Below, piece after piece: positions 1 through 22,139 of a stretch of DNA of 25,275 nt (positions within the stretch are counted from its first letter, which is position 1; each line of letters opens with the position of its first letter). Made by a program: the position numbers and the translations under genes. This DNA is from a bacterium (lineage in GTDB: Bacteria > Zhuqueibacterota > Zhuqueibacteria > Zhuqueibacterales > Zhuqueibacteraceae), in NCBI GenBank assembly GCA_044869275.1, contig JBIOXB010000140.1, forward strand, positions 1 through 25,275. Reading direction: 5' to 3'. Below the pieces are notes generated by a model. The model had not been told where the DNA came from and made no database searches. It saw only the letters and a program-made list of their open reading frames with translations.

Positions 1-172
1 CGGAAGGATAATGCACGCCCAAATAAACTCGGCTGAGGCCTACAAAAAACGCCCAGGGAATCAAGACAAGTGGTTTGAACAAGCCGGAGGCCAACTGGTC
101 GCTGATCAAAATGATTGCAGAGGGCAATTTGTCCGTATCCAAACCTTGAAACGATTTGACGGGTATCCTCAT
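1..172 (-). pseudogene. PAP2-family phosphatase remnant, runs off the left edge, apparently internally deleted
   Basis: Manual translation from ATG 172 (ATGA overlap with the upstream stop): MRIPVKSFQGLDTDKLPSAIILISDQLASGLFKPLVLIPWAFFVGLSRVYLGVHYPS. SRVYLGVHYPS is the PAP2 C3 motif; the C1 RP and C2 PSGH motifs are missing after KPLV. Not in the ORF track. Confidence 0.65.
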
Positions 173-720
173 TTTTCAGAAGAAAGAGTTGGGAGTTCCC
201 ATTGTTGATTTGGCACTGGCGGGACCGCCGGCACGGTGATGATAATAAAAGGGCGTGTGGTCTCTTCATGGCATCCATTGCACACCCCAATCCCTTCGGT
301 GTAAGCCGACTGAAAAGCGCTCCAATCCTTATGTTGAGCCGCCGTTCCTAAGGCTGCCAGTTGTGTCTGTTTAAAGCCATCCTTGAGACCAACCAAATTG
401 GTGCCATTCTCTTCCGGACGAAGTTCTACGGCCTTATCCAGATTTTCTTCGACTTCGTGTAGCTCAAACTCAGCCAACGGCCAGTTTTGCGCTTTGCCGG
501 CGAAATAGAGTTTGGCAAAGTGCAACTGCACACCGGACATGATCGTTCCTACCCCCGGCGCGCCGGCTTCGAGCGCTTTCAGGCGTGCTTCGACTTGCGC
601 ATCCTTTGTCTTGGTCTCATGGCAGCCGCTAAACAGGAAAAAAAGCGCGAGTCCAGCAAAGGCGGTGAAAGCGACGGCATAAAACAGCCGTCGAACTTTT
701 GTCACGATGGTTGTTTTCAT
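169..720 (-). CDS. Putative lipoprotein c-type cytochrome (single C-terminal CxxCH, cytochrome c'-like placement)
   Basis: Hydrophobic N-terminus ending in the lipobox-like LFSGC; heme motif CNGCH near the C-terminus. Confidence 0.7.
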   Translation of the reverse strand: MKTTIVTKVRRLFYAVAFTAFAGLALFFLFSGCHETKTKDAQVEARLKALEAGAPGVGTIMSGVQLHFAKLYFAGKAQNWPLAEFELHEVEENLDKAVELRPEENGTNLVGLKDGFKQTQLAALGTAAQHKDWSAFQSAYTEGIGVCNGCHEETTRPFIIITVPAVPPVPNQQWELPTLSSEK

Positions 721-731
721 AGAAAGACTTT

Positions 732-1022
732 CTACATGACTTCTTCAACCAGTTCCTTCATCTTCTTCCTCACTTCCACCAGAGCTTTTCTGCCTTTCGC
801 AGTGATTTCATAGTATTTCCGGATTTTGCCGTCGACGAGCTGTTCGCTGCTGCGCAGGAGGCCATCCGTCTCCAACGCGTGCAGAATCAGATACAATGTG
901 CCAGGGCTGAGTCGAAATCCGTGCCGCCCCAACTCCTTAATGATCCAAAGCCCATAGATGGGTTCTTCGGAAGCATGATACAAGATGTGAATCTTGATGA
1001 AACCGAGAAAAAAATGTTTCAG
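732..1022 (-). CDS. PadR-family transcriptional regulator, probable non-canonical CTG start
   Basis: Motifs IYGLWIIKEL, SPGTLYLILHALE, RKYYEITAKG. The frame stays open upstream of TTG 983 as LKHFFLGFIKIHILYHA, a typical PadR N-terminus. CTG at 1022 overlaps the DsrE stop. Confidence 0.85.
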   Translation of the reverse strand: MKHFFLGFIKIHILYHASEEPIYGLWIIKELGRHGFRLSPGTLYLILHALETDGLLRSSEQLVDGKIRKYYEITAKGRKALVEVRKKMKELVEEVM

Positions 1023-1372
1023 AATACGAAAGCTTTGTCCGAATCAACAGCCCATTGCGCCAATTCACTCATATGGCTGATTTCAACACCTTCAATGAGC
1101 TTCAACTCGCGAAGGCCTCTGGCATCCGTACAACTGCCGCAGGTCTTCACTTTACCGCCCTTGGCAAGAATGGACTTGAGCATGCGCTCGATATTGTAGT
1201 AACCTTGTGGCAAGTTTTGATTCGGCACGGCGCAGCTCACCGCATCTGCCATCAGGAACACTCGAACTTCTACATCGGGATGCTCTTTTTGCAAAGTCAT
1301 TCCAAGACGCAAAGCATTGTAGGCCTTCTCGGTGCCATACGGAGCGTCATTGATCAGCAAGAGAATCTTCAT
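1019..1372 (-). CDS. DsrE/DsrF-like (YchN-type) sulfur relay protein
   Basis: INDAPYGTEKAYNALRL, FLMADAV, CGSCTDARG; AAGGAG RBS upstream. Confidence 0.9.
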   Translation of the reverse strand: MKILLLINDAPYGTEKAYNALRLGMTLQKEHPDVEVRVFLMADAVSCAVPNQNLPQGYYNIERMLKSILAKGGKVKTCGSCTDARGLRELKLIEGVEISHMSELAQWAVDSDKAFVF

Positions 1373-1537: not shown

Positions 1538-2779
1538 TTACACCGCGATTGGAATTCTCATGGCTTTGCCCCCCATTCTGAGTGCCAGATGTAACAATTC
1601 TCGTTTTGGCCCAAAGGGAGACAACCACCACTTCTCAAAAAGCACTTTGCCGAGGTGCCAGACCTTTCCCATTTTGTGTAATGTAATCTGGGGAGAGGGT
1701 TCCGCGAAAAAATTGCCGTAGGCAAAACCGGCCAAATCTTCTCCGGCCTCCAACATGCAATAGCCGTCGCCGCAGAATTCTTCTTTGGGTGTCCTGCCAT
1801 CAATCTCTGCCGCGATGCGATGCGCAACGACCTCGGCATGATGGTGCGCAAACACGCCGGCCTTCGGCAACATCATTGGGACCTCCGGTTTCCAACGACC
1901 GGGAATGGAAATGGCCGTAATGTCGCCGAGGGCATAAACGTTCTTGTGCCTGGTCGCCAACGTTCCGCGATCAACAGGTATCCAGCCCGCTTCATTGGCG
2001 AGGCCAGCGTCGCGAACGAGCGAGGGCGCGCGATGCGGCGGTATGGCAATCAGCAAGTCATATTTTATCGGCGCTTTCGCTTCAAAGGAAAGCTCGTGCG
2101 TTTGTGGATTGACCGCCGTGAGCTTGTGCATCGAATGAAAGGCAATGCCCTTGGATTGCAGCATCTGCTTGATCATATCGCCAAGCACTGGCCCAGCCAC
2201 CGGCATCGGTTGCGGCTCCGGCGTGAACATCTGAATATCCACCTTCTCGCGCAGGCCGCGCTTGCTGAAGAAATCCGCGATGAGCATCGCGCCTTCATGG
2301 GGAGCGCCGGGGCATTTATATGGCATGGTACTGACCACAAGCGCGATCGCCCCAGCGCTGAATGAGGCAAGGGCATCGCGCAATTTGATTGTGCCCTCGA
2401 ATGTGTAGAACGTGTGCGCCGCCTCGGCGAGACCAGGCATTGTCTCCGGCGCGAGGTCAGCGCCGAGAGCGATAATCAAGTAATCGTAAGGCAGTGCTTG
2501 CGCGCTGGTTTCGACTTGCTGTTTCGCCAAATCGATTGCACGCGCTTCGGCATGAACAATCTCCACGCCGGGTCGCACCAGTTCCCGAACCGGACGAGTG
2601 ATGTGTTCCGGCTGGCGATCACCGGTCATCAGCCAGAGAAAAGATGGTGCAAAGGCGTGCTGGGAATTCTTTTCCACCAAGATGATGCGGTGTTCACGTG
2701 GCAGATGCCGCCGCAACTCGTTGGCAGTAACCAAACCACCGACACCGCCGCCGAGAATCAAAATGGTTTTGGCTTTCAA
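1538..2779 (-). CDS. Sulfide:quinone oxidoreductase-like FAD-dependent oxidoreductase (SQR/FCSD family)
   Basis: ILGGGVGG FAD motif, YKCPGAPHE first redox Cys, VYALGD, PKAGVFA, GYCMLEAG second Cys. Start moved to TTG 2779, which follows AAAGGAG. Confidence 0.85.
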   Translation of the reverse strand: MKAKTILILGGGVGGLVTANELRRHLPREHRIILVEKNSQHAFAPSFLWLMTGDRQPEHITRPVRELVRPGVEIVHAEARAIDLAKQQVETSAQALPYDYLIIALGADLAPETMPGLAEAAHTFYTFEGTIKLRDALASFSAGAIALVVSTMPYKCPGAPHEGAMLIADFFSKRGLREKVDIQMFTPEPQPMPVAGPVLGDMIKQMLQSKGIAFHSMHKLTAVNPQTHELSFEAKAPIKYDLLIAIPPHRAPSLVRDAGLANEAGWIPVDRGTLATRHKNVYALGDITAISIPGRWKPEVPMMLPKAGVFAHHHAEVVAHRIAAEIDGRTPKEEFCGDGYCMLEAGEDLAGFAYGNFFAEPSPQITLHKMGKVWHLGKVLFEKWWLSPFGPKRELLHLALRMGGKAMRIPIAV

Positions 2780-2781
2780 TA

Positions 2782-3780
2782 TTATTTCTCCTTTTTCTGC
2801 TTCTTTTGCATGATCACACCTGACCATGCTCCGAGCATGGCAAAGATCGTGAACGTGATGCTCCCAAGCGAAAGCAGAGGAATACCTGTCAGGCCATGAC
2901 CGACGGTGCAGCCTCCTGCCAGTGAGCCGGAGGCTCCCAATATGAGCCCGCCGCCGGCGAGTTTCCAGATTGCCACGCCTGAAATGGTTGACCAGTGAAA
3001 CTGGCCTTCACGCGAGGCGGACAAATAGCCGCCGACGGGAATGCCAAAAACAAAAAAGAAATCCCAGCTCAAAGCGCTGCGTTTGGCAATTGCCAACAAC
3101 TCAAGCGCATCTTTGCTCCCGGGCAGAACCGCCATGCCGAAAAATCGACCGGAAAGAGAGGAAACCACCCACGCGATTGTGCCTATTGCTCCAACCCATA
3201 GCCCGGTTTTTCTCCAGTTCCAGCCTTTCTCAGGATTGGTGGGGGATTTCTTCAACAAGAAAAATAGGAGGGCGACAGCAAAAGGCACGCTCATCCACCA
3301 CAGAGGCAGATTAAATAAACTTGCGATGGTCATGGTCTCGACACCACTGTCGCTACCGAGGGATTGTATCCATGTGCGCAAGGGTCTTAACGCGCCGCTT
3401 TCAGTTGTGACGTATCCGATAGTCAATCCGATAATGGCAACGAAAGCGCCGATGCTGCCGCCACCGAGTTTGTACCACACACCACCCGCGCAGCCGCCGC
3501 CCCAATTCATGGCGAGACCAAAGAGAAATCCGCCAAGTGCTGCGCCGAGAGGATAGAATGCGGGTACGGTGAATTTAACGATGCCCAAAAGTTGCAGGAA
3601 TGGCAGCATCAGCATCTGCACGGCAATCGCCAGGAAATAAGCTTTGAATCGAGTGGTGTCCCTCCTGACCAGGAGGTTGCGAAAACCCGAATTCATTCAC
3701 AAGCTGCCGCGATGGGAAGCGTAGCCGAAGGCGACGCCGACTGGCAGGCTCAATATGAAATTGGTGAGAAGATTTGTCAT
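2782..3780 (-). CDS. YeeE/YedE (TsuA-like) sulfur-compound transporter, predicted selenoprotein (Sec28), 332 aa
   Basis: ATG 3780 gives MTNLLTNFILSLPVGVAFGYASHRGSL-UGA-MNSGFRN, in frame with the 304-aa ORF. UGA (3697-3699) sits at the conserved RGxxC Cys. The other two family Cys (GGGCAGG, AGGCTVG) are intact. Confidence 0.88.
3661..3676 (-). promoter_or_regulatory. Bacterial SECIS-like hairpin of yeeE
   Basis: CCUCCU-GGUC-AGGAGG; the loop starts 26 nt 3' of the in-frame UGA and is G-led. Confidence 0.75.
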
Positions 3781-3786
3781 CCGGAT

Positions 3787-4488
3787 TCATCTCCGCATTT
3801 TTATCTTTTTGTCAAACAACGGGCCATTTCCCTTTTCAACTTTCCGGCCCGCCTGTTGCCATTCATAAACTCCATCTTCCAAACGCAGCGCCTTATAACC
3901 GGCCTTTTTCAATATGGTCACAGCTTCCGCGGCAAGCACACAATAGCGGCCACGGCAATAGGCCACAATCTCGCGGCGCTTCGCAAGCTTGTCCAGGCCG
4001 CGTTTGAGCTCGGCAAGAGGCATTGATACGGCGCCTGGCAAATGGCCGTTTTCATATTCTTCAACCGGCCTGACGTCGAGTAAAACGATTTCTTTGTTGT
4101 TGAGAAGACGTTGGAGTTCCTCGATCGCAATAGGCTCGATATCATCCCCCTCCGCAAAGAAGGATTTAGCCGCCTCTTTGATTTCTGCTCTTCTCTTCTC
4201 TGCGAGCACCTGCAAAGCTTTCCAACAAGCCAATACCTTCTCATCTGCGATGGCATAGATGACACTCACCCCTTCCTTGCGGCTCCTGACAATTCCGGCA
4301 GCTTTTAACACCTGCAAGTGTCTGGAGGTGTTGGCAATGGTCATCGACCCTTCCTTAGCCAGCGTTTCCACGCTGCGTTCGCCCTGCGCCAGAACCTCGA
4401 TGATTTCAAGCCGCTTGGGGCTTGAAAATGCCTGCGCCACGGCAGCGATTTCCTGAAAGACGAAATCCTTGAATTCTCTTCCTCGCAT
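3787..4488 (-). CDS. ArsR/SmtB-family regulator fused to a rhodanese domain
   Basis: N-terminal HTH (SSPKRLEIIEVLAQGERSV...NTSRHLQVL); C-terminal LDVRPVEEY..GHLPGA and active-site VAYCRGRYC. Confidence 0.92.
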   Translation of the reverse strand: MRGREFKDFVFQEIAAVAQAFSSPKRLEIIEVLAQGERSVETLAKEGSMTIANTSRHLQVLKAAGIVRSRKEGVSVIYAIADEKVLACWKALQVLAEKRRAEIKEAAKSFFAEGDDIEPIAIEELQRLLNNKEIVLLDVRPVEEYENGHLPGAVSMPLAELKRGLDKLAKRREIVAYCRGRYCVLAAEAVTILKKAGYKALRLEDGVYEWQQAGRKVEKGNGPLFDKKIKMRR

Positions 4489-4504
4489 GGCGGATGGCTG
4501 TCAA

Positions 4505-4558
4505 ATTCTATTATTCAATTGTTTAATTGAATAATGGAATAATTCACGAGAATGTCAA
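4505..4558 (-). promoter_or_regulatory. Sigma70 promoter with overlapping palindromic operator (probable ArsR site)
   Basis: TTGACA (4558-4553), 16 nt spacer, CATTAT (4536-4531). Inverted repeat ATTCTATTATTCAATT-GTTT-AATTGAATAATGGAAT (4505-4540, one mismatch) covers the -10. Confidence 0.75.
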
Positions 4559-4685
4559 GAAAAATTTCTGTAGAAACAAAAGTTGTATGAGCAAACTAAG
4601 GAATGACGTAAGCAGGCACGGCGAGCACGAGTGTGAGCAGGACGACAATATGGGCATGATACGCGCGCTATTTGTTCCAATCATA

Positions 4686-4741
4686 CCGGACTTGCACGTG
4701 AAAATTTTTTGGATTTGAAGATTTTGGTTGTGCAAGTCCGG
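4686..4741. repeat. REP-like inverted repeat, CGGACTTGC family
   Basis: CCGGACTTGCAC (4686-4697) and GTGCAAGTCCGG (4730-4741): perfect 12-bp arms. Confidence 0.65.
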
Positions 4742-4776
4742 CTTTGCCCAGTGCAATGAAACCTTAATTTTTGAAG

Positions 4777-4829
4777 GTCACCCTGAGCGAAGTCGAAGGG
4801 CGGCATGGTTCGACTCCGCTCACCATGAC
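4777..4829. repeat. REP-like hairpin downstream of the globin gene
   Basis: GTCACCCTGAGCGAAGTCGAA ... TTCGACTCCGCTCACCATGAC, imperfect inverted repeat. Confidence 0.65.
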
Positions 4830-4858
4830 TAAAAAACTATGGTAATAGCGTACTAGTT

Positions 4859-5347
4859 TTACTTTGTTGTTGATGAGGCCACGACGATGTCTTTTTTCGT
4901 GCTCTCCACGATGGCAATCAGCTCGCCTTGCTCCTTGGCTGGGACCTTGAACTTGTCCAAGGTTGCTTTGAAGTCGGCCGCCATCGCCTGCCATTCTTTT
5001 TCGGTGATGTTGAGATGCGCGTGCGAGTCCTTCATCGTCCGGCCGGCGTACTTTTCCGGCCCGCCGGTGACTTGGCAGACCAAAGCTGTGACGCGAAATT
5101 TTAACCCCGCCCTTGGCACCCGATCCCGTGCCTCCTTGATCTTGGGATTGGCATTCAGAATGTCGTTGACCAACAGTCGCTCGATAAAATCATCCACGAC
5201 CGTCGCAATGGCGTAAACGCCGCCAAGCCGGTCGTAGAGCGATTTTTCTTGAGCGGGCTGCTGCGCGAGCACGGGAGTTACATTCCACAGGACGAGGGCA
5301 GTGAGCGGAAGAAAAACCCATGCGAAGAAAAAGCGTTTTGTCACCAT
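4859..5347 (-). CDS. Group I truncated hemoglobin (2/2 globin) with a signal peptide
   Basis: SLYDRLGG, VVDDF, TGGPEKYAGRTMKDSHAHLNIT; hydrophobic leader ending in VLA; AAGGAG RBS. Confidence 0.9.
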   Translation of the reverse strand: MVTKRFFFAWVFLPLTALVLWNVTPVLAQQPAQEKSLYDRLGGVYAIATVVDDFIERLLVNDILNANPKIKEARDRVPRAGLKFRVTALVCQVTGGPEKYAGRTMKDSHAHLNITEKEWQAMAADFKATLDKFKVPAKEQGELIAIVESTKKDIVVASSTTK

Positions 5348-5397
5348 TGTGGTGCTCCTTTCAAAATGGTTAGGTTATGTGTAAAAACTCTTACTCC

Positions 5398-5453
5398 TAC
5401 TCTTGCTCTTACTCGTTCTTTAATACACCGAAAAGCGAGTAAGAGCAAGAGTA
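5398..5453. repeat. 18-bp perfect inverted repeat made of 6-nt units (REP-like)
   Basis: TACTCTTGCTCTTACTCG (5398-5415) and CGAGTAAGAGCAAGAGTA (5436-5453). Confidence 0.7.
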
Positions 5454-5475
5454 CGAGAAAAAGTAAAAGGACGAT

Positions 5476-5970
5476 TTATTTTGCTCCAGCGCACTGATCG
5501 CACACCCACACACCATCGACGACGCGGCCCTGGTTGAACATGGCTTTATGGCCATGCGGATCGAAGAAGTATCCCGATTCATACACCAGTTTTTTCTCGT
5601 CGTCTTTCAGCAGATGAATTTGCTCCGGCTCGATGGCATCGTCGTAGGGATGATAAATCTTTCCGCTGACAGACAACTTTTCGAGAAAGTATTGTGTCAT
5701 GAAGCTCTGCGGAATATTCACCACAAAATAGAAGTTCTTGTCGGCGGTAAAAATGCCGGTGGTGAAATCGGCCGCGCGATGCGTGCTCGGGCACAGCACA
5801 TTGACGACCGCGCAATCAAATCCCGAGGCTTCACCTTCAACAGTTTTAACGCTGATCTTTTCATTGAGGCCGGTTGGCGCGGCGTGATTGTCTGCTTGCT
5901 TTTGCAAGCAGCCAGGCATAATAGTGGCAGCCGCAATCAGCATAACAGTGCGAGAACGGTAGCGGTTCAT
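5476..5970 (-). CDS. Hypothetical lipoprotein with Cys pairs
   Basis: AAGGAG RBS; lipobox-like MPGC; CAVVNVLC and terminal CDQC; collinear with neighbours. Confidence 0.7.
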   Translation of the reverse strand: MNRYRSRTVMLIAAATIMPGCLQKQADNHAAPTGLNEKISVKTVEGEASGFDCAVVNVLCPSTHRAADFTTGIFTADKNFYFVVNIPQSFMTQYFLEKLSVSGKIYHPYDDAIEPEQIHLLKDDEKKLVYESGYFFDPHGHKAMFNQGRVVDGVWVCDQCAGAK

Positions 5971-6014
5971 AACTTCTCCTTAGTAACGAACTGAGTGGGT
6001 CTTGGAAGGGCTCG

Positions 6015-7148
6015 CTATAGTCCGAACCAGCGCGCGCGGCGACTGGATCCAAAGTGCTGCTTCTCGCCGACCAGGGCGACGGAGGGTTCGATGAAGCTCC
6101 CCGTAGGCGAAGGCCCCGAAAGAAAGTCCACGTCCACGCGCCCGACGCGGCCTCCCCCAAACTCGACGTAGCAGGTACCCGCCCCAGCATAAGCCGGGGG
6201 TTGTTCGCCGCCCTGCACTTCCGCCAGCAACGAGGCGGCAACGACGCGCGCGGCCCCTTCGGAGAACGTGCCGGCCTTGGCCGTTCCCACACTCGTCACG
6301 TCCCCGACTGCATACACGCCCGGGAACCGCGTCTTGAGGTTCTTTGGGTTGACGGGAATCCAGCCATTCTCGGCCATACCACTCGCCGCGACCACGTCCG
6401 GGACGCGGTGCTTCGGGATGCCGAGGAACAGATCATAAGGCATCTCACGCTCATCATCCAGAATGGCGACGCGACGCGCTGGGTCGAGGGCACGCACGCG
6501 CCGGTTGGGGATGAAGGTGATCCCCCGCTCGGCGAAAGCAGCGACCAACGCCTTGGAGGTTGCCGGTGACGGCGGAATCGGAGCGCCGAACGGTATGACC
6601 AAGCTAATTTCGCACGCGTCGCGCACTCCGCGTGTGGTGAGATAATCGTGCAGCAACAAGGCGGCTTCGCTCGGCGCTGGCGGGCACTTGAATGGCGCTG
6701 AGGTGACGCCGACAATCGCGCGGCCCTTCGAGAAGGTGGGCAGCACCTCCCGCAAGCGTTCAGCGCCCGCAAAGGAGTAAAACTCGTTGCCCCCTTCGCT
6801 GAGGCCCGGCGTGGCAGCTAGATCGTAGTCGGCGCCCAGTGCGACCACCAGCACGTCGGCCTCATAGGTCTCGTTGTTAGTCGTGACGCGCCGTGTTTCA
6901 GGGTCAATCGAGGTGATTGTTTCCTGACGAAAACGGACACCAGACTTCACGATGTTGCTGTATGAGAGTCGAATGGCGTCAGGTGTCTTATGACCGAACA
7001 TGACGTCGAACTTCGAGAAGCCGAAGAAAAAGGAGTCGTTCTTGTCGATCAGGGTGAGGTCGAGATGACCGTCGAGCGCCTCGGACAGTACTGTGCTGAG
7101 TTCGAGTCCGCCGAAACCCGCACCGAGGACAACTATTCGTGGATTCAT
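6015..7148 (-). CDS. Second SQR-like FAD-dependent oxidoreductase
   Basis: VVLGAGFGG, FKCPPAPSE, VYAVGD, AKAGTFS, GTCYVEFG; AAAGGAG RBS. Confidence 0.85.
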   Translation of the reverse strand: MNPRIVVLGAGFGGLELSTVLSEALDGHLDLTLIDKNDSFFFGFSKFDVMFGHKTPDAIRLSYSNIVKSGVRFRQETITSIDPETRRVTTNNETYEADVLVVALGADYDLAATPGLSEGGNEFYSFAGAERLREVLPTFSKGRAIVGVTSAPFKCPPAPSEAALLLHDYLTTRGVRDACEISLVIPFGAPIPPSPATSKALVAAFAERGITFIPNRRVRALDPARRVAILDDEREMPYDLFLGIPKHRVPDVVAASGMAENGWIPVNPKNLKTRFPGVYAVGDVTSVGTAKAGTFSEGAARVVAASLLAEVQGGEQPPAYAGAGTCYVEFGGGRVGRVDVDFLSGPSPTGSFIEPSVALVGEKQHFGSSRRARWFGL

Positions 7149-7197
7149 TGTTTAACTCCTTTCACGCATTCAGTCTGCACTGGCGATATATTCGGCT

Positions 7198-7262
7198 GGC
7201 TAACGACAGCTAACCGGCGCGCGGCGTTGTTGCTGCGCGTCCGATTGAGCTTATTGTTAGGC
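7198..7262 (-). mobile_element. Integron attC-like site (65 bp)
   Basis: Minus strand GCCTAAC-AATAAGCTCAATCGGACGCGC...GCGCGCCGGTTAGCTGTC-GTTAGCC: RYYYAAC and GTT boxes enclosing an imperfect palindrome, just 3' of a small ORF. Confidence 0.65.
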
Positions 7263-7293
7263 GGATTTCTGGATTGAGGCAACTTATATTCCG

Positions 7294-7581
7294 CTACGCG
7301 CATTCATAAATCCGGATTTCTGGATCGGCTAAAAGATAAGGCTTTAGTGCCGCCGCTACATCCTTCTGAAACAGCGTACTCCCAAGATAGTTCTCAGCAT
7401 TCGCTTTCGAGTCGAAGCCATGAAGCACCTGTACGTCTTCTGCCCTTACGAGCAGGTCCTTCGATTCGGCGCCCGGGGTGTTGGATAGAAAGGGCTGCCG
7501 ATACTTTGTGTACACGCCGCCGGCTTGCGCCCGGTTCTCTGGAGCAATCTTCAGGGTGATTTCAAGAAATGCCTTCGTCAT
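7294..7581 (-). CDS. Small hypothetical protein, possibly dimeric alpha-beta barrel (ABM-like); gene-cassette-like
   Basis: 95-aa ORF with AGGAG RBS; DVQVLHGFDS..A..YL pattern; followed by the attC-like site. Confidence 0.7.
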   Translation of the reverse strand: MTKAFLEITLKIAPENRAQAGGVYTKYRQPFLSNTPGAESKDLLVRAEDVQVLHGFDSKANAENYLGSTLFQKDVAAALKPYLLADPEIRIYECA

Positions 7582-7672
7582 TATCTTACTCCTATGTAAG
7601 TTGAGTTCATAACCACTACCGCGTTTTTTTTAGTTACTGGCATAATGTACGATATTTCGCTCGCGGTTTCTA

Positions 7673-8346
7673 CTATTGCAAGGGGTGGTTTTCAAAACTA
7701 AATTTAGGCGCCGCGCAACTCAACGCTGTCAACGCCTCCTTCCACTCGGCTTCATCATGGGCTTTGCGAGCGCGGAAATTAATCCCAAGCGTGCCAAACT
7801 TGACGGCGCTGCTCGATTGTGGCGCGCCACTGAAGACGTCTTTTCGCCAGGTTATCTCGAAGCCGGCAAAACCGGCCGACACCACGGTGGCTTGCAACTC
7901 TGCTGCCAGCAGAGCACCGGCAATGACTCCGCATAACCGTGACGAAATTCTACATTACTCATGCCGGCTTCAACGGCAGCGCTCCGAGCTTTGTCCAACA
8001 TCGCCGGGGTCATATCGACGCCGATCACTTGCCCCTTCGGCCCGACCATTTTGGCGGCGATCAAGCTGTCGATTCCTGCGCCGCAACCCACATCCACGAC
8101 ACGCTCGCCAGGCAGAAGCCTTCCCAAACTGAAAGGATTTCCAGTGCCGGCAAAGGACTCGATAGACTTTTCGGGAATGCCTTCCAGCCACTCATCTGAA
8201 TAGCCGACCAGGCGAGCCAAGCGCCGGCCCGTGTGGAAGTGAAAACCGCGGTCGGGATCGAGCGCCACCGTCGCGTACTCTTCTTGAATGGCATGGCGCA
8301 GTTGATCCAAATTGAGATCAAGTTCTGAAGTGATTTGATGACTCAT
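7673..8346 (-). pseudogene. ArsM-like SAM-dependent methyltransferase, internally deleted and frameshifted
   Basis: FAGTGNP and VVDVGCGAGID SAM motif up to AESLPV. At 7915-7924 the sequence switches to another frame reading IAGALLAAELQATVVSAGFAGFEITW. The expected DVVISN and RVLKPGG segment is absent. Confidence 0.8.
7898..7914 (-). promoter_or_regulatory. Orphan SECIS-like hairpin in the methyltransferase remnant
   Basis: CUCUGCU-GGC-AGCAGAG, starting 10 nt into the IAGA codons. Confidence 0.5.
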
Positions 8347-8360
8347 GACACATCCTTAAA

Positions 8361-8948
8361 TCATATTGTTTCTTCCAGCTCAATCGTCACCGGAACCGGA
8401 TTGCGGATGATGTCCAGCACTGGTGAGATTTTTTGAACATGTTCCCACAGTTTCTCCAGCGCCTGATTGGGGGCATTGCATTTGACCTGCACGGCGAAAC
8501 GGACAATTTGATAGCCTGGGCGAACCTGAGGCGACAATCCCAAAAAGCCGCGCAGATCGATTTCGGCTTCGAGGCGCAACCCAAGCTCATTCACGTGGAA
8601 GCCTTGTTGCGTGGCGTGGTAGACGAAGCTCATAATCAAGCATGAACCTAAACCGGCCAAAATGATTTCCATGGCATTCGCAGCAGTTTCGTCGTCAAGC
8701 TGAGTAGAGCGCCCACCGGTTTCAAATGAGATGCTCGGAGCGCGGTGGATGGCCTGGGTTTCGTTGTCATGAGAACAAGGAATCTTTATCTGAACCTGAG
8801 CACCAGTGCTCCATTCGACCTCAGCGCGGAGGGTCACACGCGCCAAAGCCGGATTGGCCTTGATAGCGTCAATGGTATCGCTGAATTGAGCGAAATCGAC
8901 GCCATTGAAGATGTCGGTTGTTGCCGCCTGGGTGATCATGCGCTCCAT
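8361..8948 (-). CDS. OsmC-family protein (start uncertain: 8948 or 8939)
   Basis: NGVD, NAMEIILAGLGSCL, EIDLRGFLGLSPQVRPGY, SPVLDIIRNPVPV. Confidence 0.85.
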   Translation of the reverse strand: MERMITQAATTDIFNGVDFAQFSDTIDAIKANPALARVTLRAEVEWSTGAQVQIKIPCSHDNETQAIHRAPSISFETGGRSTQLDDETAANAMEIILAGLGSCLIMSFVYHATQQGFHVNELGLRLEAEIDLRGFLGLSPQVRPGYQIVRFAVQVKCNAPNQALEKLWEHVQKISPVLDIIRNPVPVTIELEETI

Positions 8949-9258
8949 TCGTGTTTGTTCTGTCACAAGATAAGAATCAACTCTTCCAAAAATCTTCCGC
9001 CGGTCTTCCAGACAGAAGATTTTGACCAAGCTGATTTGAAATTGTCAAGTGAATGAAAAAAGAGAAGGTTACTGCATGAGGTGAAGTCTAGGAGGGCGAC
9101 AAAATCGGCAAAAAAATCTTAATGCGAGATTAGGCTTCCTTAATATGACCAAACCCTGGCCTGCGGCAGGGCAGGCTCAGCAAAAAAATTCTGTGAGCTG
9201 TTTCACTTCCGTGAGCAATTTGTGCTTTATTTGGTTCCGGCTCGTACGGGTTCGAATT

Positions 9259-12200
9259 TTAAAGCGTTCGCATCTGCTTGAGGGCTGAGCGAGCTTGCGC
9301 GACCGTGGTTTCCGCCCCGAGTTTGATAAAGGTGGGCAAAGCGCCGGCAACGAGCCGGCTGGCAGTCAGGTAATCTTTGGGCCGGCCTCTCCGCATGAGG
9401 ACAAAGGCACGAAAGAGATCGCTGCGCGCGATTTCATAATCTTGCCGGATGGCCTGAAATTCTTTCTTCGTTTGTTTGAGCTTGTCAATGGCAGAATCCC
9501 ACTCTTCGAGTAATCCATGCAACATGCCTTGCGCCTGGTAAGTGAGGCCGAGGAAAAGGTGGCTGCCGAAAGCCTTGGCAGATTCCTCCGCCTTCGCCGC
9601 ATAGAAGCGCGCTTTGTCCATATCGCCATTAACGGCGAAGCCCATCGTCGAGATGGGATAAAGCATGACGTTGCAAGTGACGCATAGGCCGTGATTGGCC
9701 GCCACCGCCAGTCCTGCTTCTACCGCCTCACGCACGCCGGCGTAATCGCCTGCTTCCATGCGATTACGTCCCAGCGTCGCATACAAACGCACGAGGCAAT
9801 GCGGCTTCATCATGGCGCGGTCGGCAATGCGCAAGCCCTCGTGCAGATAGCCGCGTGCTTCATCCAAGCGACCAAGTGCCGTGGCTACCACGCCCATGCG
9901 CTGCAGCGCACTCGCCTCGCCGGCAAAGGCCTCGAGTCGGGCATAAAGCGCGCGCGCCTTGCTCAAATTGGAGAGCGCGTCGAGAAAACGGCCTTGGAAG
10001 TATTCGGCGGTACCGATGAAAAGCGTGCACATTGCCAGCGCGCGACTGGCGCCGATATCTTGCGCCTGCTTTTGCATGTGCCGCGCAAATTCCATCGCGG
10101 TTTGATAAGGCTCATCACCATACAGGTGATACTCGCACAGTCAAAGATGGACGTCAGAAACATCGGCGAGATAGCGATTCAAATCGACGCGGCTGAGGCG
10201 CTGGGCTTCGTACTCGAGGCCATGACGCCACTCGCCGAGAGGCACGCAGCAGAGCGCCATCATCTCGTAAGCCTTTGCGGCGTCACCCGACGCGTCTGGG
10301 CCGAGCGCCTCAGCAACACCCAAGCTCTCCCGCGCTATCGCCAGCGCTTCGGCAAATTCATTGCGCTGCCAATGATAATGCGCCTGGGTGTATTGCAAAC
10401 GCACCCATTCCAAATCGCGGGTTTCTGGCGTCAACGCGAGGGCTTCCGACAAATGCCGCCACGCACTCTCCAGATTTCCCGCCAGGGTGTACCGATAAGC
10501 GGCTTTGCGCCTCAGCCGGCGAATATCTAACGTCGCACTTCCGGAAATCGCCGCTTCAAAATGCGCCGCGCTCTCTTGCTCTTTGCCCAGCATACCAAGC
10601 TGATCGCCCAAACTTTCGTGCAACTTGACAGTATGCCGGTCATCATCGAGCTGCAGCGCCTGTGCGTAATAATTGATCGCGACCTCGTGCGCATACAGCG
10701 CCGCGGCGCGATCACCAGCCATAAGAAGATATTTTACCGCCTGCTTGGGCGCGTCGCCGCGGAGGCAATGCTCGGCAAGCGCTTCAACCGGTAACGCACG
10801 ATCATCGCGATACAAAGCCTCCAATATCTTTGCCACTTGTCCGTGCAAATAGCGTTGCCGGGTTTGCGACATCTGCTGGTAAACCGCTTCGTGGAACAAC
10901 GGATGGACAAAGCTGAACGTCAATCCCAATTCCTTCAACAAGTGCACGCTTAGAGTCTCATCGAGCAAATCCAAAATCTCTGCGCTCGGAAGCTGCAGAA
11001 TATTCTCCAGCAAATTCAGGTTGGTTTGCTGGCCGGCGACGGCAACCACTTGCAAAAGCGATTGCGCCTTGGGGGATAAACCGTTCCATTTTTGCGCCAA
11101 TAAGACTTGCAAGGAAGGAGGAAGATAAGGCTTGGTGATCTTACCCGCACGCCAGACACCATCCTGCAGCGTGATCTCGCCGGCTTTCTTCAATTGGCCG
11201 GCCATTTCAACGGCAAAGAGGGGATTGCCTGCTGTAAAAGAAAAAACTTCGTTGGCGAACGCCGCCTCCACCTCCCCTTTCTCCAACGCTTGTTGCAAGA
11301 GTTGCTGATGCTCGGCCTCCGAAAGCGGTTGCAAGAAAATAGTGCCGGCAAGGCGGCCACGATTCAGTGCCGCGAGGAGCGTCGTCAGCTCGGCGGAAAT
11401 CTCCGGCTCGGCGGAACGGCAGGTGGCGACTAGCAAAAGAGGAAAATCAGCGGCGTGGCGCGCCAGATAATTAAAAAGTCCGATAGTGCCGTCATCGGCA
11501 AAGTGCAGATCCTCCAAAATCATCACCACTGGCGTCAAGTCCGCAAGCGCCTTGAGAAAACGTAGCAATCCGGCGAAGAGATAAGCCTGCGCTGCCCCGT
11601 CAGTTCGAGCCGATGGCGCCGGGGCGGATGGCAATTCCGGAATGGCGGCGGCCAATTCTGCCGGAATGAGATGCGCGTGCTGGGGAGAGGTGTTGATGGC
11701 CATGCGCAAAACTTCGACGAACGGACCGTAGGGCAATTCCTTTTCCTGCTCGTAGGCGCTGCCCATCAGCGGCTGATAACCGCGCAATTGCGCCAGATAA
11801 AAAATCTCTTGCGCCAAACGCGTCTTGCCGATGCCGGCCATGCCCTGCAGCAACAACACCTCGCCTTTGCCCTGCGTCAGATGATCGAGAAGCGTTGCGG
11901 CCTGCTTCAGTTCATTTTGCCGCCCCACCATCGGGCTGCGTTTGTGCAGCACCGAAGCCGGTTTTGCCGCGCCAGCCTTTTTCGGCGCGGCCTGCTGCGC
12001 CGATTGAATTTTGCCTTCGCGAATAGTTTGCAAGAGGGCGATGGTTTCTGCGGAAGGCTTGGTGTCGAGCTCCTTCGCGAGAATTTCCTCGCAGCGCTTA
12101 TATTGATGCAACGCCTGTGAGCGGTTGCCCTGCAGCGCAAAGGCGCGCATCAAGCCTTGATGTGCGGTTTCGTCGAGCGGGTCAATGCCGAGCACGCGGC

Positions 12201-12768
12201 GAAAGGCCTCAGCCGCATCGGCAAAATCGCCGGCGTCGATATGCTTCTGCGCGAGGGCGATGAGCAATTCCAAAAACTCCACGCGTGCCGATTCGCGCAG
12301 CCCTTCCGTCCACCTTTCATAAATATCGGAAGGCAGCAAATCTCCCGTGTAGCTTGCCACGGCATGTTGGTAAGAAGAGAGCGTTTTGTTCCGGCGTGCT
12401 TCTTGCGTCAGGTGCTGGAAAGCGTCGAGATCGGTATGCACTTCCGCAGGGGCGGTTAATTTGAGGGTTTCATCTTTGTAAACGAGCAACGCTTCGGGCG
12501 CAGGTCCAGCCGTGGTGGCCTCAAAAGCTTTTCGAATGTAGTGGATGGATTTGTACATCTGCGCTGCCGCCGCGGTGGGATCCAGCTCCGGCCAAAGGGC
12601 ATCAATCGCTTGATCGCGATGCAATTGATGTTTGGGCTTAATGGCGAGTAGCTTCAGCAGGCTCAGCGCCTTTCGGCTCTTGAAGGCAGCTTCGGGTATT
12701 TCCCGTTCTCCCAGATAAAGGCAAAATCTCCCGAGCAGAGAAAAGCAAATGCCGGGTGAGGAATTCAT
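9259..12768 (-). CDS. HTH-BTAD-AAA ATPase-TPR transcriptional regulator (SARP/STAND type), predicted selenoprotein (Sec876), 1169 aa
   Basis: The 875-aa and 278-aa ORFs share one frame, joined by DVHL-UGA-LCEYHLYGDEPYQTA-MEF with no other stop. Walker A GMAGIGKT, Walker B VMILEDLHFAD, BTAD YTGDLLP; TPR-like helices on both sides of the UGA. Confidence 0.8.
10114..10130 (-). promoter_or_regulatory. SECIS-like hairpin of the BTAD regulator
   Basis: AUCACC-UGUAU-GGUGAU; the stem starts 10 nt and the loop 16 nt after the UGA at 10141-10143. Confidence 0.65.
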
Positions 12769-12849
12769 CTAACTTCAGATCTTTAAATGAGGCTGTTATC
12801 TTTTGCTATTCCTCGATTGAAGGTAAGAGGTCAAGCAACGGAAGAGCAG

Positions 12850-12944
12850 AAAACCGGCTTTTGTGAGCTTGGGAAGAGGTGTTAGCATGCGCCTCCTCCG
12901 GCTCCCATCCCCTACAAAGATACACATCTTCTTTCGAAAATCAA
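12850..12944 (-). promoter_or_regulatory. Probable promoter and structured 5' leader of the BTAD regulator
   Basis: TTGATT (12944-12939), 16 nt spacer, TATCTT (12922-12917) preceded by TG; then hairpin GGAGGAGGCG..CACCTCTTCC and AAAAGCCGGTTTT. Confidence 0.4.
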
Positions 12945-13121: not shown

Positions 13122-14324
13122 TCACTTCCTCATGATCATTTTTTTCGTTACCGACATTCCCGCCGCTTCCAGTCGATACCAATAAATTCCCGAGGCCAGA
13201 ATTTTTCCTGTGGTGTCCATGCCGCGCCAGCGCAGGGTATATTTTCCGGCAGGCTGGTCCGCATTCACTAAGGCCGCCACTTGCTCCCCACTCACATTAA
13301 AAATTGACAGGCTCACGTGACCTGCAACAGCAAGCTCGTAATGGATGGTCGTCTCGGGATTAAATGGATTCGGGTAGTTCTGCTGCAAAACGAAAGCCAT
13401 TGCAACGAAATTTTGTTCTTCGACAGAAGTAACGGTCTCGCCGCGCAGAACGTAATAGCTGCGCACCGGATTCTGCGTCACCGTCACGGTGTTGTTTTGA
13501 GTATCAAGTTGTGCGCCAGTGACTTTTTGCCACTGATTGTTTGAATCCAAGTAGATCAACTGAATGCTCGCTTCGTTGATTTTCAACTCGTCGATGAGCT
13601 GCTGGGGATAATGAAAGCTCATGCGGGTTGAGCGCAAGAAATTCAGCATGCCGCCATTCATCATGCCGTGGCCGCCCATGCGCGTGAACTCGGTATGGAA
13701 TCCCATGAAACCACCGCCATACACCGGCAGACTGTCGGGAGGCATCCATTCAAGTTGGCAATAGAGACTGTCCGGCCACATCATACCCATGCCCATCGCG
13801 CCGGGAGGGATGTGCATCCAACTGCTGCTGTCGGTCGGGCAATAAATGCGTGTGCTGTCGGTGGCATCGCGATGCATCCAGCCGCCCGACCAGGCCGGTG
13901 GGCCAAGCGGCTCGCGCCATTCCAAGCCATTGATCGTGAAGACGATCAAGATGGAGGGGTTGAAGCTTGTCATCACGCCGCCGGTAATCGTCACAGTTTC
14001 GCCGTGGTTCGGTCGCTTGGCCCCGCTCTTGGGCTGATACCACCACGGCCCGAACATCAGAAGATAATCCGTTTTACCATCGCTATTGGTATCCAAAGAA
14101 TAAAGCGCCTGCTGATAATCCAAATTATGCATGAATCCGAGGTGCTGCAGAGAATCCACGCGCACTGTGCCGCTCACTGTGACGGTTTGCAGCGTGTCGG
14201 GCCAGTCCATGCCATGATAGCCGTTGTGCCAGCCGTGTCCACCCATGCCTTGCGCATTGGCATTGGCCCCGCCAATCAACATGAATGTCACAGCTGCGGA
14301 TAGTGCTTTGTTGAAATCTCTCAT
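13122..14324 (-). CDS. Secreted protein with C-terminal T9SS type A sorting/FlgD-Ig-like domain, Met/His-rich
   Basis: Signal peptide ending ANA-Q; C-terminal LQQNYPNPFNPETTIHY...LASGIYWYRL...TKKM; GGAG 7 nt before ATG 14324. Confidence 0.85.
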   Translation of the reverse strand: MRDFNKALSAAVTFMLIGGANANAQGMGGHGWHNGYHGMDWPDTLQTVTVSGTVRVDSLQHLGFMHNLDYQQALYSLDTNSDGKTDYLLMFGPWWYQPKSGAKRPNHGETVTITGGVMTSFNPSILIVFTINGLEWREPLGPPAWSGGWMHRDATDSTRIYCPTDSSSWMHIPPGAMGMGMMWPDSLYCQLEWMPPDSLPVYGGGFMGFHTEFTRMGGHGMMNGGMLNFLRSTRMSFHYPQQLIDELKINEASIQLIYLDSNNQWQKVTGAQLDTQNNTVTVTQNPVRSYYVLRGETVTSVEEQNFVAMAFVLQQNYPNPFNPETTIHYELAVAGHVSLSIFNVSGEQVAALVNADQPAGKYTLRWRGMDTTGKILASGIYWYRLEAAGMSVTKKMIMRK

Positions 14325-14460
14325 AACAATACTCCACATCAAAGATCAACTCCTTGATAAATTGAGATTGACGGCGATAATATCGATGTTACAATTTGAA
14401 TGCCGGGTGAGAGAGACAAATACAGAACGTAATCGCCTATTTTACAACACGGTTGCGTTA

Positions 14461-14868
<408 letters not shown>

Positions 14869-15665: not shown

Positions 15666-16424
15666 TCAAGCCAGATATACTGCTGGCAAAACCACCAGAA
15701 TCAACAGTGTGGAAGTGATGACGCCGAAAACAACGACCGTGGCAAGCGGGCGTTTCACTTCCGCTCCAACACCGGTTGAAATTGCCATCGGAATGAAGCC
15801 TGCGGCATCATTAATGGCTGTCGCCAGCGCCGGGCGCAAACGTTGTTTCGCTGCCGATATGACCGCTTCGGCTAATGGCAATCCTTCATCGCAAAAATTG
15901 CGAATGGCCGCGACGAGCGCTTGGCCGTTCAGCATCGCGATGCCGCTAAGCGCGATAAATCCGATCGCTGCGCTTACACTGAAAGATATGCCGAGAGCCC
16001 AAAGCGCCAACGCGCCACCGATGGCAGCGAAGGGAATGCCGGTATAAATGATGAGCACATCATGCAGGCTGCGCAGACTCAGGTAAAGCAAAAAGAAGAT
16101 GAGCGCCAGTGGCACGACGATCATGAAGCGCCGCTGCGAGCGAATGAGATGCTCGAACTGGCCGCCCCATTCTATGATGTAACCTTCCGGCAGATTCACT
16201 TCTTTTTCGAGGCGCGCCTGCGCTTCGGCGACAAAAGATGCCACGTCGCGGCGCACGCCCACGGCTTCGATCACCTCCAGAACGTTGCGCGTCGGTATGC
16301 CATGCCGCGCGATTTGATCTTGATTTACGACGATCTGCAGAGCTGGCTGGCCGGTGATTTGTTCGCCTGAAACCTGGGCAGCGCCGGGAATGGTCAATAG
16401 AGTTTTCTGGATTTCATCGCTCAA
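15666..16424 (-). pseudogene. Second CzcA/CusA fragment, 5'-truncated and internally deleted
   Basis: EQITGQP..IARHGI..IEAVG is joined directly to VRRDVASFV, whereas intact czcA here has about 70 aa between these points. RLRPALATA present. The 5' end abuts a REP copy. Confidence 0.85.
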
Positions 16425-16534: not shown

Positions 16535-17065
16535 CTAAAAATCATCAAAATTATCTTTCAACTCTTCAGGCGGTTTTTCGCCAAACTTGCACCGATCTTC
16601 TTTCTCTCGAATCGCACGGGTGAAGCTCGACCACCAATAATCTTGCGGATGCGCAACCACACCATGTTTAACCGCATTCCAGTAAACATAAGCTAATCGA
16701 TATTCGAAATCACGATCGCCGCGAATGCAAGTGTCCCAATAATTCCACCACACTTGTCGGGCGGGCGCGCTGTCGAGCCGGTTCAACAGCGTGGCGCTGC
16801 CACCGTGTATGCGCATGAAAATGGCCGGCATGTCTTTGGCGCGTCTGGCTTTGGCAACTAGATGATAGTGATTGTTGAGAATGATCCACGCATCTAGTCG
16901 CCACTCGAAATGCGAGAACCATTTCTCCATCGCCAACCGCACGAACTCTTTGCGGACATCATTGCGCAAGATATGCCGCTTGCCTAAAATACCTCCCGTG
17001 ATAAAATAAATAGCGCCATCGATAAACAGATGCGGCGGATTGTGTGGGTACTTTTTGAATTCCAT
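16535..17065 (-). mobile_element. REP-associated tyrosine transposase (RAYT, IS200-like Y1 HUH)
   Basis: YFIT, AWIILNNHYH (HUH), WDTCIR, YVYWNAVKHG, YWWSS; GGAGG RBS before ATG 17065. Confidence 0.88.
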
Positions 17066-17124
17066 GAGCTTTCCTCCCAGTTTTGTGAATTTAAGAGATG
17101 GGAACAATAGACACCGCAATTTTT

Positions 17125-17594
17125 CGGAGTGCAACGCTTTAGCGTTGTCGCACGAAGATAAACAATTCGGAGTCAAAACGCTTCAACGTTTGGCCGCTGC
17201 AGACAACCGCGCAGCGACAGTAAACCGTCGCACTCCGGTTTTTCGGAGTGCATCGCTTTAGCGTTGCCGTACCAAGATAAACAATTCGGAGTCAAAACGC
17301 TTTGGCGTTTGGCTATTGCAGACAACCGCACAGCGACAGTAAACCGTCGCACTCCGGCTTTTCGGAGTGCAACGCTTTAGCGTTGCCGTACCAAGATAAA
17401 CAATTCGAAGTCAAAACGCTTGAGCGTTTGGCTATTGCAGACAACCGCGCAGTGACAGTAAACCGTCGCAATCCGGCTTTTCGGAGTGCAACGCTTTAGC
17501 GTTGCCGTACCAAGATAAACAATTCGGAGTCAAAACGCTTGAGCGTTTGGCTACTGCAGACAACCGCGCAGCGACGGTAAACCGTCGCACTCCG
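17125..17594. repeat. Four tandem 119-bp REP/BIME-like units
   Basis: CGGAGTGC starts at 17125, 17244, 17363 and 17482. Each unit ends GCA(C/A)TCCG and holds three short palindromes. Confidence 0.92.
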
Positions 17595-20773: not shown

Positions 20774-20777
20774 GACT

Positions 20778-21890: not shown

Positions 21891-21945
21891 GTTTGAATAC
21901 TCCGTTGATTGGAAGTTAAATCCTTGCAGAAAAAACAAAAACTTT

Positions 21946-22108
21946 CACGCAAAGGTGCAGAGACGCAAAGATTACGCAAAGGAAATCATAGACAAAATTA
22001 TTTAGAGCAAAATAACAAGAAATCTTTTGAATAATCATTTTGACTAACTAATCATTTTGTCATCCAAAAAATCTTTGCGCGGCCTTTGCGACTTTGCGTC
22101 TTTGCGTG
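21946..22108. repeat. Nested REP-like inverted repeats between czcC and czcB
   Basis: Outer CGCAAAG x3 mirrored by CTTTGCG x4; inner GACAAAATTATT and AATCATTTTGTC. Confidence 0.7.
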
Positions 22109-22139
22109 CGCTTTTGATTTTAGTTGCGGCTTGTCAAGC

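Follow-up and report, generated by a model that had tools for sequence, protein, structure and literature searches.

Does a bacterial transcription activator carry selenocysteine (Sec) in its sensor domain, and which of the genes around it does it control? The question is raised by a contig of 25,275 nucleotides (the window; JBIOXB010000140.1 of assembly GCA_044869275.1) from a bacterium of the family Zhuqueibacteraceae, in which the gene of a regulator with a BTAD domain is interrupted by an in-frame UGA codon. The original prediction, made from the letters of the DNA, had placed this regulator in one 10-kb module for handling sulfide, persulfide or selenium, together with a Sec-linked YeeE transporter and a methyltransferase. 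All named genes lie on the minus strand, where that prediction had put them, and the source names of close homologues of the window genes point to candidate division KSB1. From comparison across genomes, we conclude that Sec is very probably inserted at codon 876 of the regulator, and that a Sec-containing activator of the large-SARP type with its own target operon is probably the best explanation of the locus. Labels of the form L0xx denote fetched related loci, G0xx the genomes compared and G000 the window's own genome. The features that carry this reading are the following.

9259..12768, minus strand: SARP/STAND regulator, 1169 aa if the UGA is read (Pfam, NCBIfam and EmbR/AfsR matches, AlphaFold2 model, conservation)
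10141..10143, minus strand: in-frame UGA of the regulator, codon 876 of 1169, predicted selenocysteine (Cys column in homologues, TGA recurrence)
10113..10131, minus strand: predicted selenocysteine insertion sequence (SECIS) of the regulator, with a 7-bp stem and a 5-nt loop, G second in the loop, loop 16 nt past the UGA
8967..9014, minus strand: predicted operator-promoter, three GGAAGA copies at an 11-bp period (9009-8982) and a -10-like TATCTT (8972-8967)

The regulator gene contains a single in-frame TGA (10143-10141, codon 876) followed by 293 open codons. Among 167 genomes of the phylum the gene was present in four, the own genome included, with the TGA in all four; in the three relatives, which belong to two other genera, it occupies the same column. 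A search of 1.84 billion representatives returned 242 regulator matches at E <=1e-10. The alignment has 151 rows, 14 generic TPR matches having been dropped from 165; of the 99 homologue rows with a residue in column 876, 94 have Cys. We fetched 44 loci, 35 of which span the site; minus one exact duplicate and plus the window and G007, these gave 36 loci (three repeat the phylum relatives, and at least one near-duplicate pair remains), with TGA in 26 and a Cys codon in 10. Homologues with TGA, at about 35% identity, come from KSB1, several Chloroflexota and a single genome each of Myxococcota and Acidobacteriota; the Acidobacteriota one is nested among Chloroflexota in a quick tree and may owe its place to transfer or to an error in binning. 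A further sample was drawn from the phylum of G170: 9 of 401 genomes searched there matched, and six of the eight new loci show the site (5 TGA, 1 Cys). A quick unrooted tree of 40 rows holds three changes between Sec and Cys, compatible with a Sec that is old in the regulator clade and was lost repeatedly. The unpublished genome G014 enters the tallies for codons, operator, tree and selA/selD as one of the TGA-bearing relatives, and the search for a partial selD used its SelD as query; G001, also unpublished, was used only for same-genus selA/selD statements and the purC test, and no conclusion rests on these two alone.

The SECIS consensus that we applied has a loop of 3-9 nt with G in one of the first two loop places, 16-37 nt past the UGA, and a folding energy of <=-7.5 kcal/mol (PMC13188914). 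The hairpins predicted after the Cys-equivalent codon of the regulator, YeeE and methyltransferase genes all pass a simplified form of it, with loops 16, 26 and 17 nt past the codon, and are by themselves weak evidence. Past the site the peptide is identical in TGA and Cys forms, which leaves the choice of codons free, and the synonymous codons that form the stem and loop of the regulator hairpin (TAT/CTG/GGT) were found in 26/26 TGA loci vs 1/10 Cys loci. Further 3' in the TGA loci, Gly is encoded by GGT in only 11% of cases and Tyr by TAT in 55%. An out-of-sample repeat gave the same picture, with these codons in 5/5 new TGA loci and 0/1 Cys locus. The case for Sec in the regulator thus rests on conservation: distant homologues share both the TGA, on a conserved Cys column, and the synonymous codons that build the hairpin. 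At L056:9935, a Cys form (TGT) still has the whole SECIS-like hairpin, which fits a recent change from Sec to Cys.

As the original prediction had stated, there are no sel genes in the window, and the host's Sec machinery had been named as a check on it. In the own genome, selA, selB and the tRNA-Sec gene (selC) were located above cut-offs on other contigs. Across genomes, selA occurs in 12/12 TGA-bearing vs 4/7 Cys-bearing genomes and selD in 11/12 vs 4/7, the genomes in both tallies being kin and not independent. Additionally, the own genome holds in-frame TGA genes of catalogued selenoprotein types, namely a SelW-like CxxU (C208:42069-42281), a CMD/AhpD-like CxxU (C4:8260-8403) and a Prx-like UxxC protein (C169:2879-3133). 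Sec formate dehydrogenase, taken as a positive control, gave no match above cut-off in the own genome.

The regulator has the large-SARP (STAND-class) layout known from AfsR, judged from its sequence. A winged helix and BTAD domain (about residues 1-250; BTAD E 6e-20) are followed by an AAA_16 NTPase (280-447, with GMAGIGKT and LEDLH; E 6e-20) and C-terminal TPR repeats (TPR_MalT E 3e-7, under its Pfam cut-off). The winged helix alone has no Pfam match; the N-terminal 250 aa match EmbR and AfsR weakly, the EmbR match spanning residues 7-250 (E 3e-5). The same order of winged helix and BTAD, NTPase and TPR is found in AfsR of Streptomyces coelicolor (PDB 8HVR, 8K60), and EmbR (2FEZ) is the other relative of this kind. 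Against the AfsR family NF053617, the regulator scores 44.8 bits, with a cut-off of 1430. It also differs from AfsR in its TPR sensor, which carries a conserved set of Sec/Cys, His and CxxC, in its hosts (KSB1, Chloroflexota, Myxococcota) and in its predicted targets, which are OsmC, methyltransferase and DsrE genes instead of antibiotic regulators.

AlphaFold2 models the C-terminal 413 aa as an all-helical superhelix (predicted local distance difference test score 93.6). In a fold search, domain III of MalT (PDB 1HZ4), likewise a superhelical sensor of a STAND transcription activator, came second (Z 24.6, root-mean-square deviation 6.0 over 325 residues) at 16% identity amid generic TPR proteins, which score as high (8JAL, Z 28.4). 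The DNA-binding domain of MalT stands at its C-terminus. We rejected fold searches as evidence on the ligand, the matches being generic TPR superhelices. The MalT ligand is maltotriose, and the inducer of large-SARP TPR sensors is described as open, a statement made for AfsR (PMC10936776). Within the sensor, His990 is kept in 131/134 rows, Cys1029 in 133/135, Cys1032 in 133/134, His874 in 99/110 and Asp872 in 99/109, and together with U876 and R994 these residues make up a candidate ligand set. In our reading of the model, they sit on alternate helices. Alternate helices of TPR folds line the groove.

Upstream of osmC, the first gene behind the regulator, GGAAGA occurs three times at an 11-bp period, with TATCTT 9 nt later (8 nt if the repeat is taken as a heptamer). 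This geometry fits the rule given for SARP operators, direct repeats at an 11-bp period of which the last ends about 8 bp before the -10 box; the repeat sequence itself differs from that of AfsR (PMC10936776). Across phyla, the pattern with an 11-bp period precedes the first downstream gene. After one short region and one duplicate had been dropped, a leave-one-out matrix beat all 20 shuffles in 25/36 downstream regions, and three further sites were found outside the training regions. In the own genome the osmC site scores best (31.8 bits, next 19.2), close relatives having been in the training set. Cys-form regulators (L050, L051, L066, L046) also show the operator, in front of SCO4226-like, DsrE or TusA-domain genes. 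The operator is a prediction, and we infer its binding by the regulator from the conserved DNA motif together with the SARP precedent; activation of the downstream operon by the regulator is, on this footing, very likely. In L053, two operator-promoter copies lie about 1 kb apart 3' of the regulator (L053:10725 and 11740), the second before osmC.

In the mechanism that we propose, SelB would read the hairpin past codon 876 and insert Sec, giving a regulator of 1169 aa. Its N-terminal winged-helix/BTAD region would bind the 11-bp-period repeats, which overlap the -35 position of the next promoter, and activate an operon of osmC, the ArsM-like methyltransferase gene (with Sec), in some relatives a DsrE gene (with Sec), a gene for a hypothetical protein of 164 aa (hyp164) and a globin gene. 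By analogy with AfsR and MalT, the NTPase and TPR parts would hold the activator off until an inducer meets the TPR sensor and ATP is bound. Sec876 with His990, Cys1029 and Cys1032 (and Asp872 and His874) would most likely form a soft-ligand site for a thiol-reactive small species.

Several observations weigh against this reading. The SECIS test is permissive, as 511 of 3832 TGAs that end frames of >=200 codons in the own genome (13%) pass it; the three hairpins have folding z-scores of -1.24, -0.63 and +0.16 and are no more stable than shuffles, and on these two grounds hairpin stability was rejected as stand-alone evidence. No covariation was seen in the regulator SECIS among 25 sequences; compensatory change is absent because the stem sequence is nearly invariant. 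Fisher values for the codon contrast are overstated, because the loci are kin. Residue 876 is something other than Cys in 5 of the 99 rows. The own assembly, which is 94% complete, contains no selD above cut-off and no partial one. All four same-family genomes tested have selD (two of them unpublished, G001 and G014), and the missing selD is likely an assembly gap; a gap shared by purC and selD was rejected as the cause, purC being present in the own genome. On the side of the operator, 11 of the 36 regions lack one by leave-one-out and 8 still lack one after a wider look. Among the latter are two close KSB1 relatives, whose downstream genes are unrelated and whose available DNA shows no site, and the eight new loci score at least 29 bits in three cases, 13 bits in one and below 8 bits in four. 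Further, the target operon is partly decayed in the own genome.

Could the UGA be a true stop, the gene being either a pseudogene or split in two, one part for 875 aa and a separate one for a TPR protein of 278 aa? Databases do annotate a split: 10 of 17 regulator matches, down to 63% identity and one of them named Calditrichia, measure 873-880 aa, which takes them just up to the UGA. The adjacent methyltransferase is broken, and selD was not found. Against this stand the conserved peptide EYHLYGD between the UGA and the next Met, a Met that is Leu in close relatives, the position of the stop on a conserved Cys column across phyla, and the hairpin codons, which track the UGA (26/26 TGA vs 1/10 Cys loci). 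Ratios of synonymous to replacement changes are alike on both sides of the UGA. We regard a true stop as very improbable, and the length of the database entries as the fragmentation by automated annotation that the original prediction had foreseen. Reading of the UGA as Cys or Trp in this host, which the missing selD would also allow, appears more improbable still: the sole tRNA called with a UCA anticodon is tRNA-Sec, above the Rfam cut-off, selA and selB are intact, TGA ends ordinary genes of the window, and selD is present in 11/12 other TGA-bearing genomes. Insertion of Sec remains our reading of codon 876.

The other genes of the stretch are listed here in the order of transcription, ahead of the question whether they form one module or two units.

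8361..8939, minus strand: OsmC-like, Cys form, no UGA (PF02566; the start may be 8948); first gene of the predicted target operon
7679..8346, minus strand: ArsM-like S-adenosylmethionine (SAM) methyltransferase pseudogene; Sec codon lost and reading frame shifted by a 196-nt deletion
7898..7924, minus strand: deletion junction, with a 9-nt direct repeat left in single copy (7924-7916), and orphaned SECIS-like hairpin (7915-7898)
7294..7581, minus strand: hypothetical protein, 95 aa, no Pfam/NCBIfam family; a 56% identical gene lies 3' of the regulator in L063
6015..7148, minus strand: SQR/FCSD-like flavoprotein 1, Cys form; G+C 62% vs genome 55%; in 0/44 related loci
5476..5970, minus strand: hyp164, 164 aa, Cys motifs; 77-90% identical genes in L043 and L062; kept in KSB1 operon versions
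4859..5347, minus strand: truncated globin with N-terminal hydrophobic leader (PF01152); also in L043 and L062; last gene of the KSB1 operon
4510..4558, minus strand: sigma-70-like promoter TTGACA-16-CATTAT overlapping an inverted repeat, a consensus match only; putative start of the second transcription unit
3787..4488, minus strand: ArsR-rhodanese fusion, Cys form; also 5' of YeeE in G016
2782..3780, minus strand: YeeE/TsuA-family sulfur-anion transporter, predicted Sec28 (PF04143; UGA 3699-3697, hairpin 3676-3661)
1538..2779, minus strand: SQR/FCSD-like flavoprotein 2, Cys form (Pfam, NCBIfam)
1019..1372, minus strand: DsrE-like, Cys form (Pfam); accompanies YeeE in G007, G010 and G016

The methyltransferase gene had been predicted to have lost its UGA segment. 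Compared with two intact relatives, it has an internal deletion of 196 nt. A 9-nt repeat, which flanks the segment in L043, remains as a single copy at the junction; the TGA stood at the end of the lost segment, and the hairpin that came after this TGA survives at 7915-7898. Intact relatives read W-x-x-U-I-A-G in six loci and have Cys in one, which supports, at the level of sequence, a formerly Sec-containing methyltransferase. The best NCBIfam and PDB matches of the intact enzyme are of the ArsM type; the intact forms score 226, 219 and 255 bits against ArsM NF008823 (cut-off 263), and of the catalytic cysteines of ArsM the last alone remains, as Sec or Cys, with Thr and Gly in the GCGNP and ISNCV motifs. 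Compared with ArsM and the ArsM-like selenoprotein families NF041536, NF041537 and NF047649, the type found here shares the SAM-dependent fold and has Sec at the last catalytic-cysteine position (UxxG); it has no second Sec domain, lacks two ArsM cysteines, and falls under all cut-offs. Contigs of sequencing run X1 are identical to window positions 4816-12900 and 2700-4789, and X1 is not an independent check of the deletion because it may be the source of the window. Separate from the pseudogene, a canonical ArsM with all cysteine motifs continues into a GNAT-like stretch at G000:C87:1-1240.

YeeE has one in-frame TGA (3699-3697, codon 28 from the ATG at 3780), as predicted. The protein matches PF04143 (E 8e-63) and, over its full length, YeeE/TsuA of Spirochaeta thermophila (6LEO, E 4e-35), although it stays below the TsuA cut-off (180 vs 400 bits). 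In the 6LEO alignment, the three pore-cysteine positions are kept, the first as UGA, and Sec28 aligns with Cys at position 22; the equivalent Cys is essential in the relative SoxT1B (PMC11582611). Of 167 genomes searched, five match and all five carry the TGA; their hairpins show synonymous changes with pairing mostly kept, judged by eye. A sequence pattern sorted 105 database matches into 45 that start at the Met just after the site, 22 that are full-length with Cys and 38 other forms; here, too, annotation cuts the protein. Recoding to Sec, as claimed for the regulator and YeeE, is thereby supported in both by comparison across genomes. The catalogued YeeE/YedE selenoprotein has the motif GUxSG, whereas the Sec of the window YeeE stands at the first pore cysteine in the context RGSLUMNSG. 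Neither SQR contains an in-frame UGA, and against the Sec subtype of Type III SQR (NF049943) they score 253 and 212 bits, with 525 as the cut-off. In G016, an N-terminally incomplete frame with an in-frame TGA and about 70 open codons lies between YeeE and a porin-like gene (L032:17450-18120) as a possible further Sec candidate, which we take to resemble a deacetylase.

Gene neighborhoods were counted over the 44 related loci, of which only 15 true homologue loci span >=5 kb downstream. OsmC lies 3' of the regulator in 13/44 (two duplicates), the ArsM-like methyltransferase in 10/44, a DsrE-like gene near the regulator in 13/44 (one duplicate, one remnant) and globin in 2/44. The downstream genes that recur are OsmC, methyltransferase, DsrE, TusA and SCO4226-like, and the predicted recurrence of regulator, OsmC and ArsM-like methyltransferase across phyla was found. 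In G007, the operon behind the regulator has three Sec genes, because its DsrE carries UxxC; a YeeE-DsrE pair lies on a different contig of the same genome. A MerT-family gene sits just upstream of the regulator in a close relative (L062:6547-6900).

Do these counts describe a single integrated module for sulfide/persulfide or selenium, with YeeE, both SQRs, ArsR-rhodanese and DsrE all governed by the Sec regulator? The co-orientation of all genes would suit it, as would the adjacency of the two units in G016, there in a different order, a contig from another study that joins globin to YeeE without ArsR, and the DsrE or TusA genes after many regulator homologues. However, YeeE and ArsR-rhodanese were near the regulator in 1/44 loci and SQR-like genes in none of the 44; G007 has the two units on different contigs; a promoter-like site and an inverted repeat belong to ArsR itself; and no comparable operator precedes ArsR-YeeE, the best other window score being 9.4 bits. 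SQR1 looks inserted because its G+C is 62% vs 55% for the genome, and it is probably a later insertion. The single module is accordingly an improbable reading: of the original claim, the part with regulator, OsmC and methyltransferase was supported, and the inclusion of SQR and YeeE was not. In our reading, the stretch combines a conserved regulator-OsmC-ArsM-like methyltransferase unit with a separately promoted ArsR-YeeE(Sec)-SQR-DsrE unit; the latter would be an ArsR-controlled sulfur uptake unit, with Sec at the first pore cysteine of YeeE. A different account of the first unit is arsenic (or soft-metal) sensing and detoxification, in which Sec and CxxC would bind As(III) and induce an arsenite methyltransferase. 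Three chalcogen ligands suit As(III), which we count for it, along with the ArsM-type best matches of the intact methyltransferase, MerT upstream in L062 and SCO4226-like genes after Cys forms. It is set back by the methyltransferase score below the ArsM cut-off (226 vs 263 bits), by Thr and Gly at the ArsM cysteines, by the canonical ArsM elsewhere in the host (C87) and by the lack of any arsB, acr3 or arsC family member among 127 neighbors scanned. We consider it doubtful, if somewhat less so than the single module.

For the Sec-containing activator with its target operon, the inducer is the least certain part. Reactive sulfur or selenium species are the leading candidates, as a possible and not yet a probable choice; As(III) or another soft metal is a weaker one, an oxidant or nitric oxide is unlikely, and anything else more unlikely still. 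It is also unlikely, in our view, that the regulator acts as a selenium-dependent switch in two senses. With selenium replete, the full regulator would be made, with Sec as its sensing residue; under depletion, an 875-aa activator would result that lacks most of the sensor domain. UGA readthrough could set operon output in this way, because AfsR without its TPR part still binds DNA and activates in vitro (PMC10936776). If true, selenium supply would be sensed in transcription through recoding of a transcription factor, whose operon encodes further selenoproteins.

The regulator shares with catalogued prokaryotic selenoproteins (119 families, PMC13188914 Table 1) a UGA at a Cys-homologous position with a downstream hairpin. 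That catalogue includes YeeE, arsenite methyltransferase (UxxG), DsrE-like (UxxC) and OsmC-like families, and its Table 1 holds no BTAD, SARP, STAND or TPR protein, the sole regulatory entry being a 'putative regulatory protein, FmdB family'. Among the selenoprotein models of NCBIfam 20.0, none matches the window regulator or three of its homologues. A keyword search of the main texts of deep-Sep and BSepDB gave no regulator, a search that leaves room for a listing in the BSepDB supplement or in Haft and Tolstoy 2025; the literature search, made in paper listings, gave no report of a Sec-containing SARP/BTAD regulator. Judged by its sequence against that catalogue, the regulator is very probably a selenoprotein of a family outside it. 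Nearly all catalogued prokaryotic selenoproteins are redox enzymes, carriers or transporters. A sensor domain with Sec in a DNA-binding STAND activator would, if true, add signal sensing in transcription to the roles of bacterial Sec. The family is widespread and present in databases only as truncated halves, and the YeeE subtype has Sec at an uncatalogued pore position. With a short list of ligands, a predicted operator, a one-operon regulon here and natural Sec/Cys pairs, the regulator family offers a testable case.

Smaller observations concern the rest of the window, which has no tRNA gene and no Rfam match. Among 20 sequencing runs, no RNA dataset is listed as containing it. For hyp164, an ESM Atlas search gave only sub-0.9 hypothetical clusters and no family. 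Between globin and ArsR (4750-4850) lies a short intergenic repeat, REP-type-like, that many contigs of other origin match. Where the ArsR-YeeE-SQR-DsrE run ends, a PadR gene (732-983) is followed at 169-720 (minus strand) by the gene of a 183-aa protein that has a hydrophobic leader, a single CxxCH heme-type motif and no Pfam/NCBIfam family. Directly upstream of the regulator (13122-14342, minus strand) stands a gene whose product, of secreted type, is rich in His/Met/Gly in its N-terminal part and carries a FlgD/T9SS-type tail at the C-terminus. A long RND efflux cluster (17597-23426) has a rearranged and partly decayed region downstream of it, with two remnants of AcrB/CzcA-type C-termini (14461-14832 and 15666-16424) and an IS200-like transposase (16535-17176).

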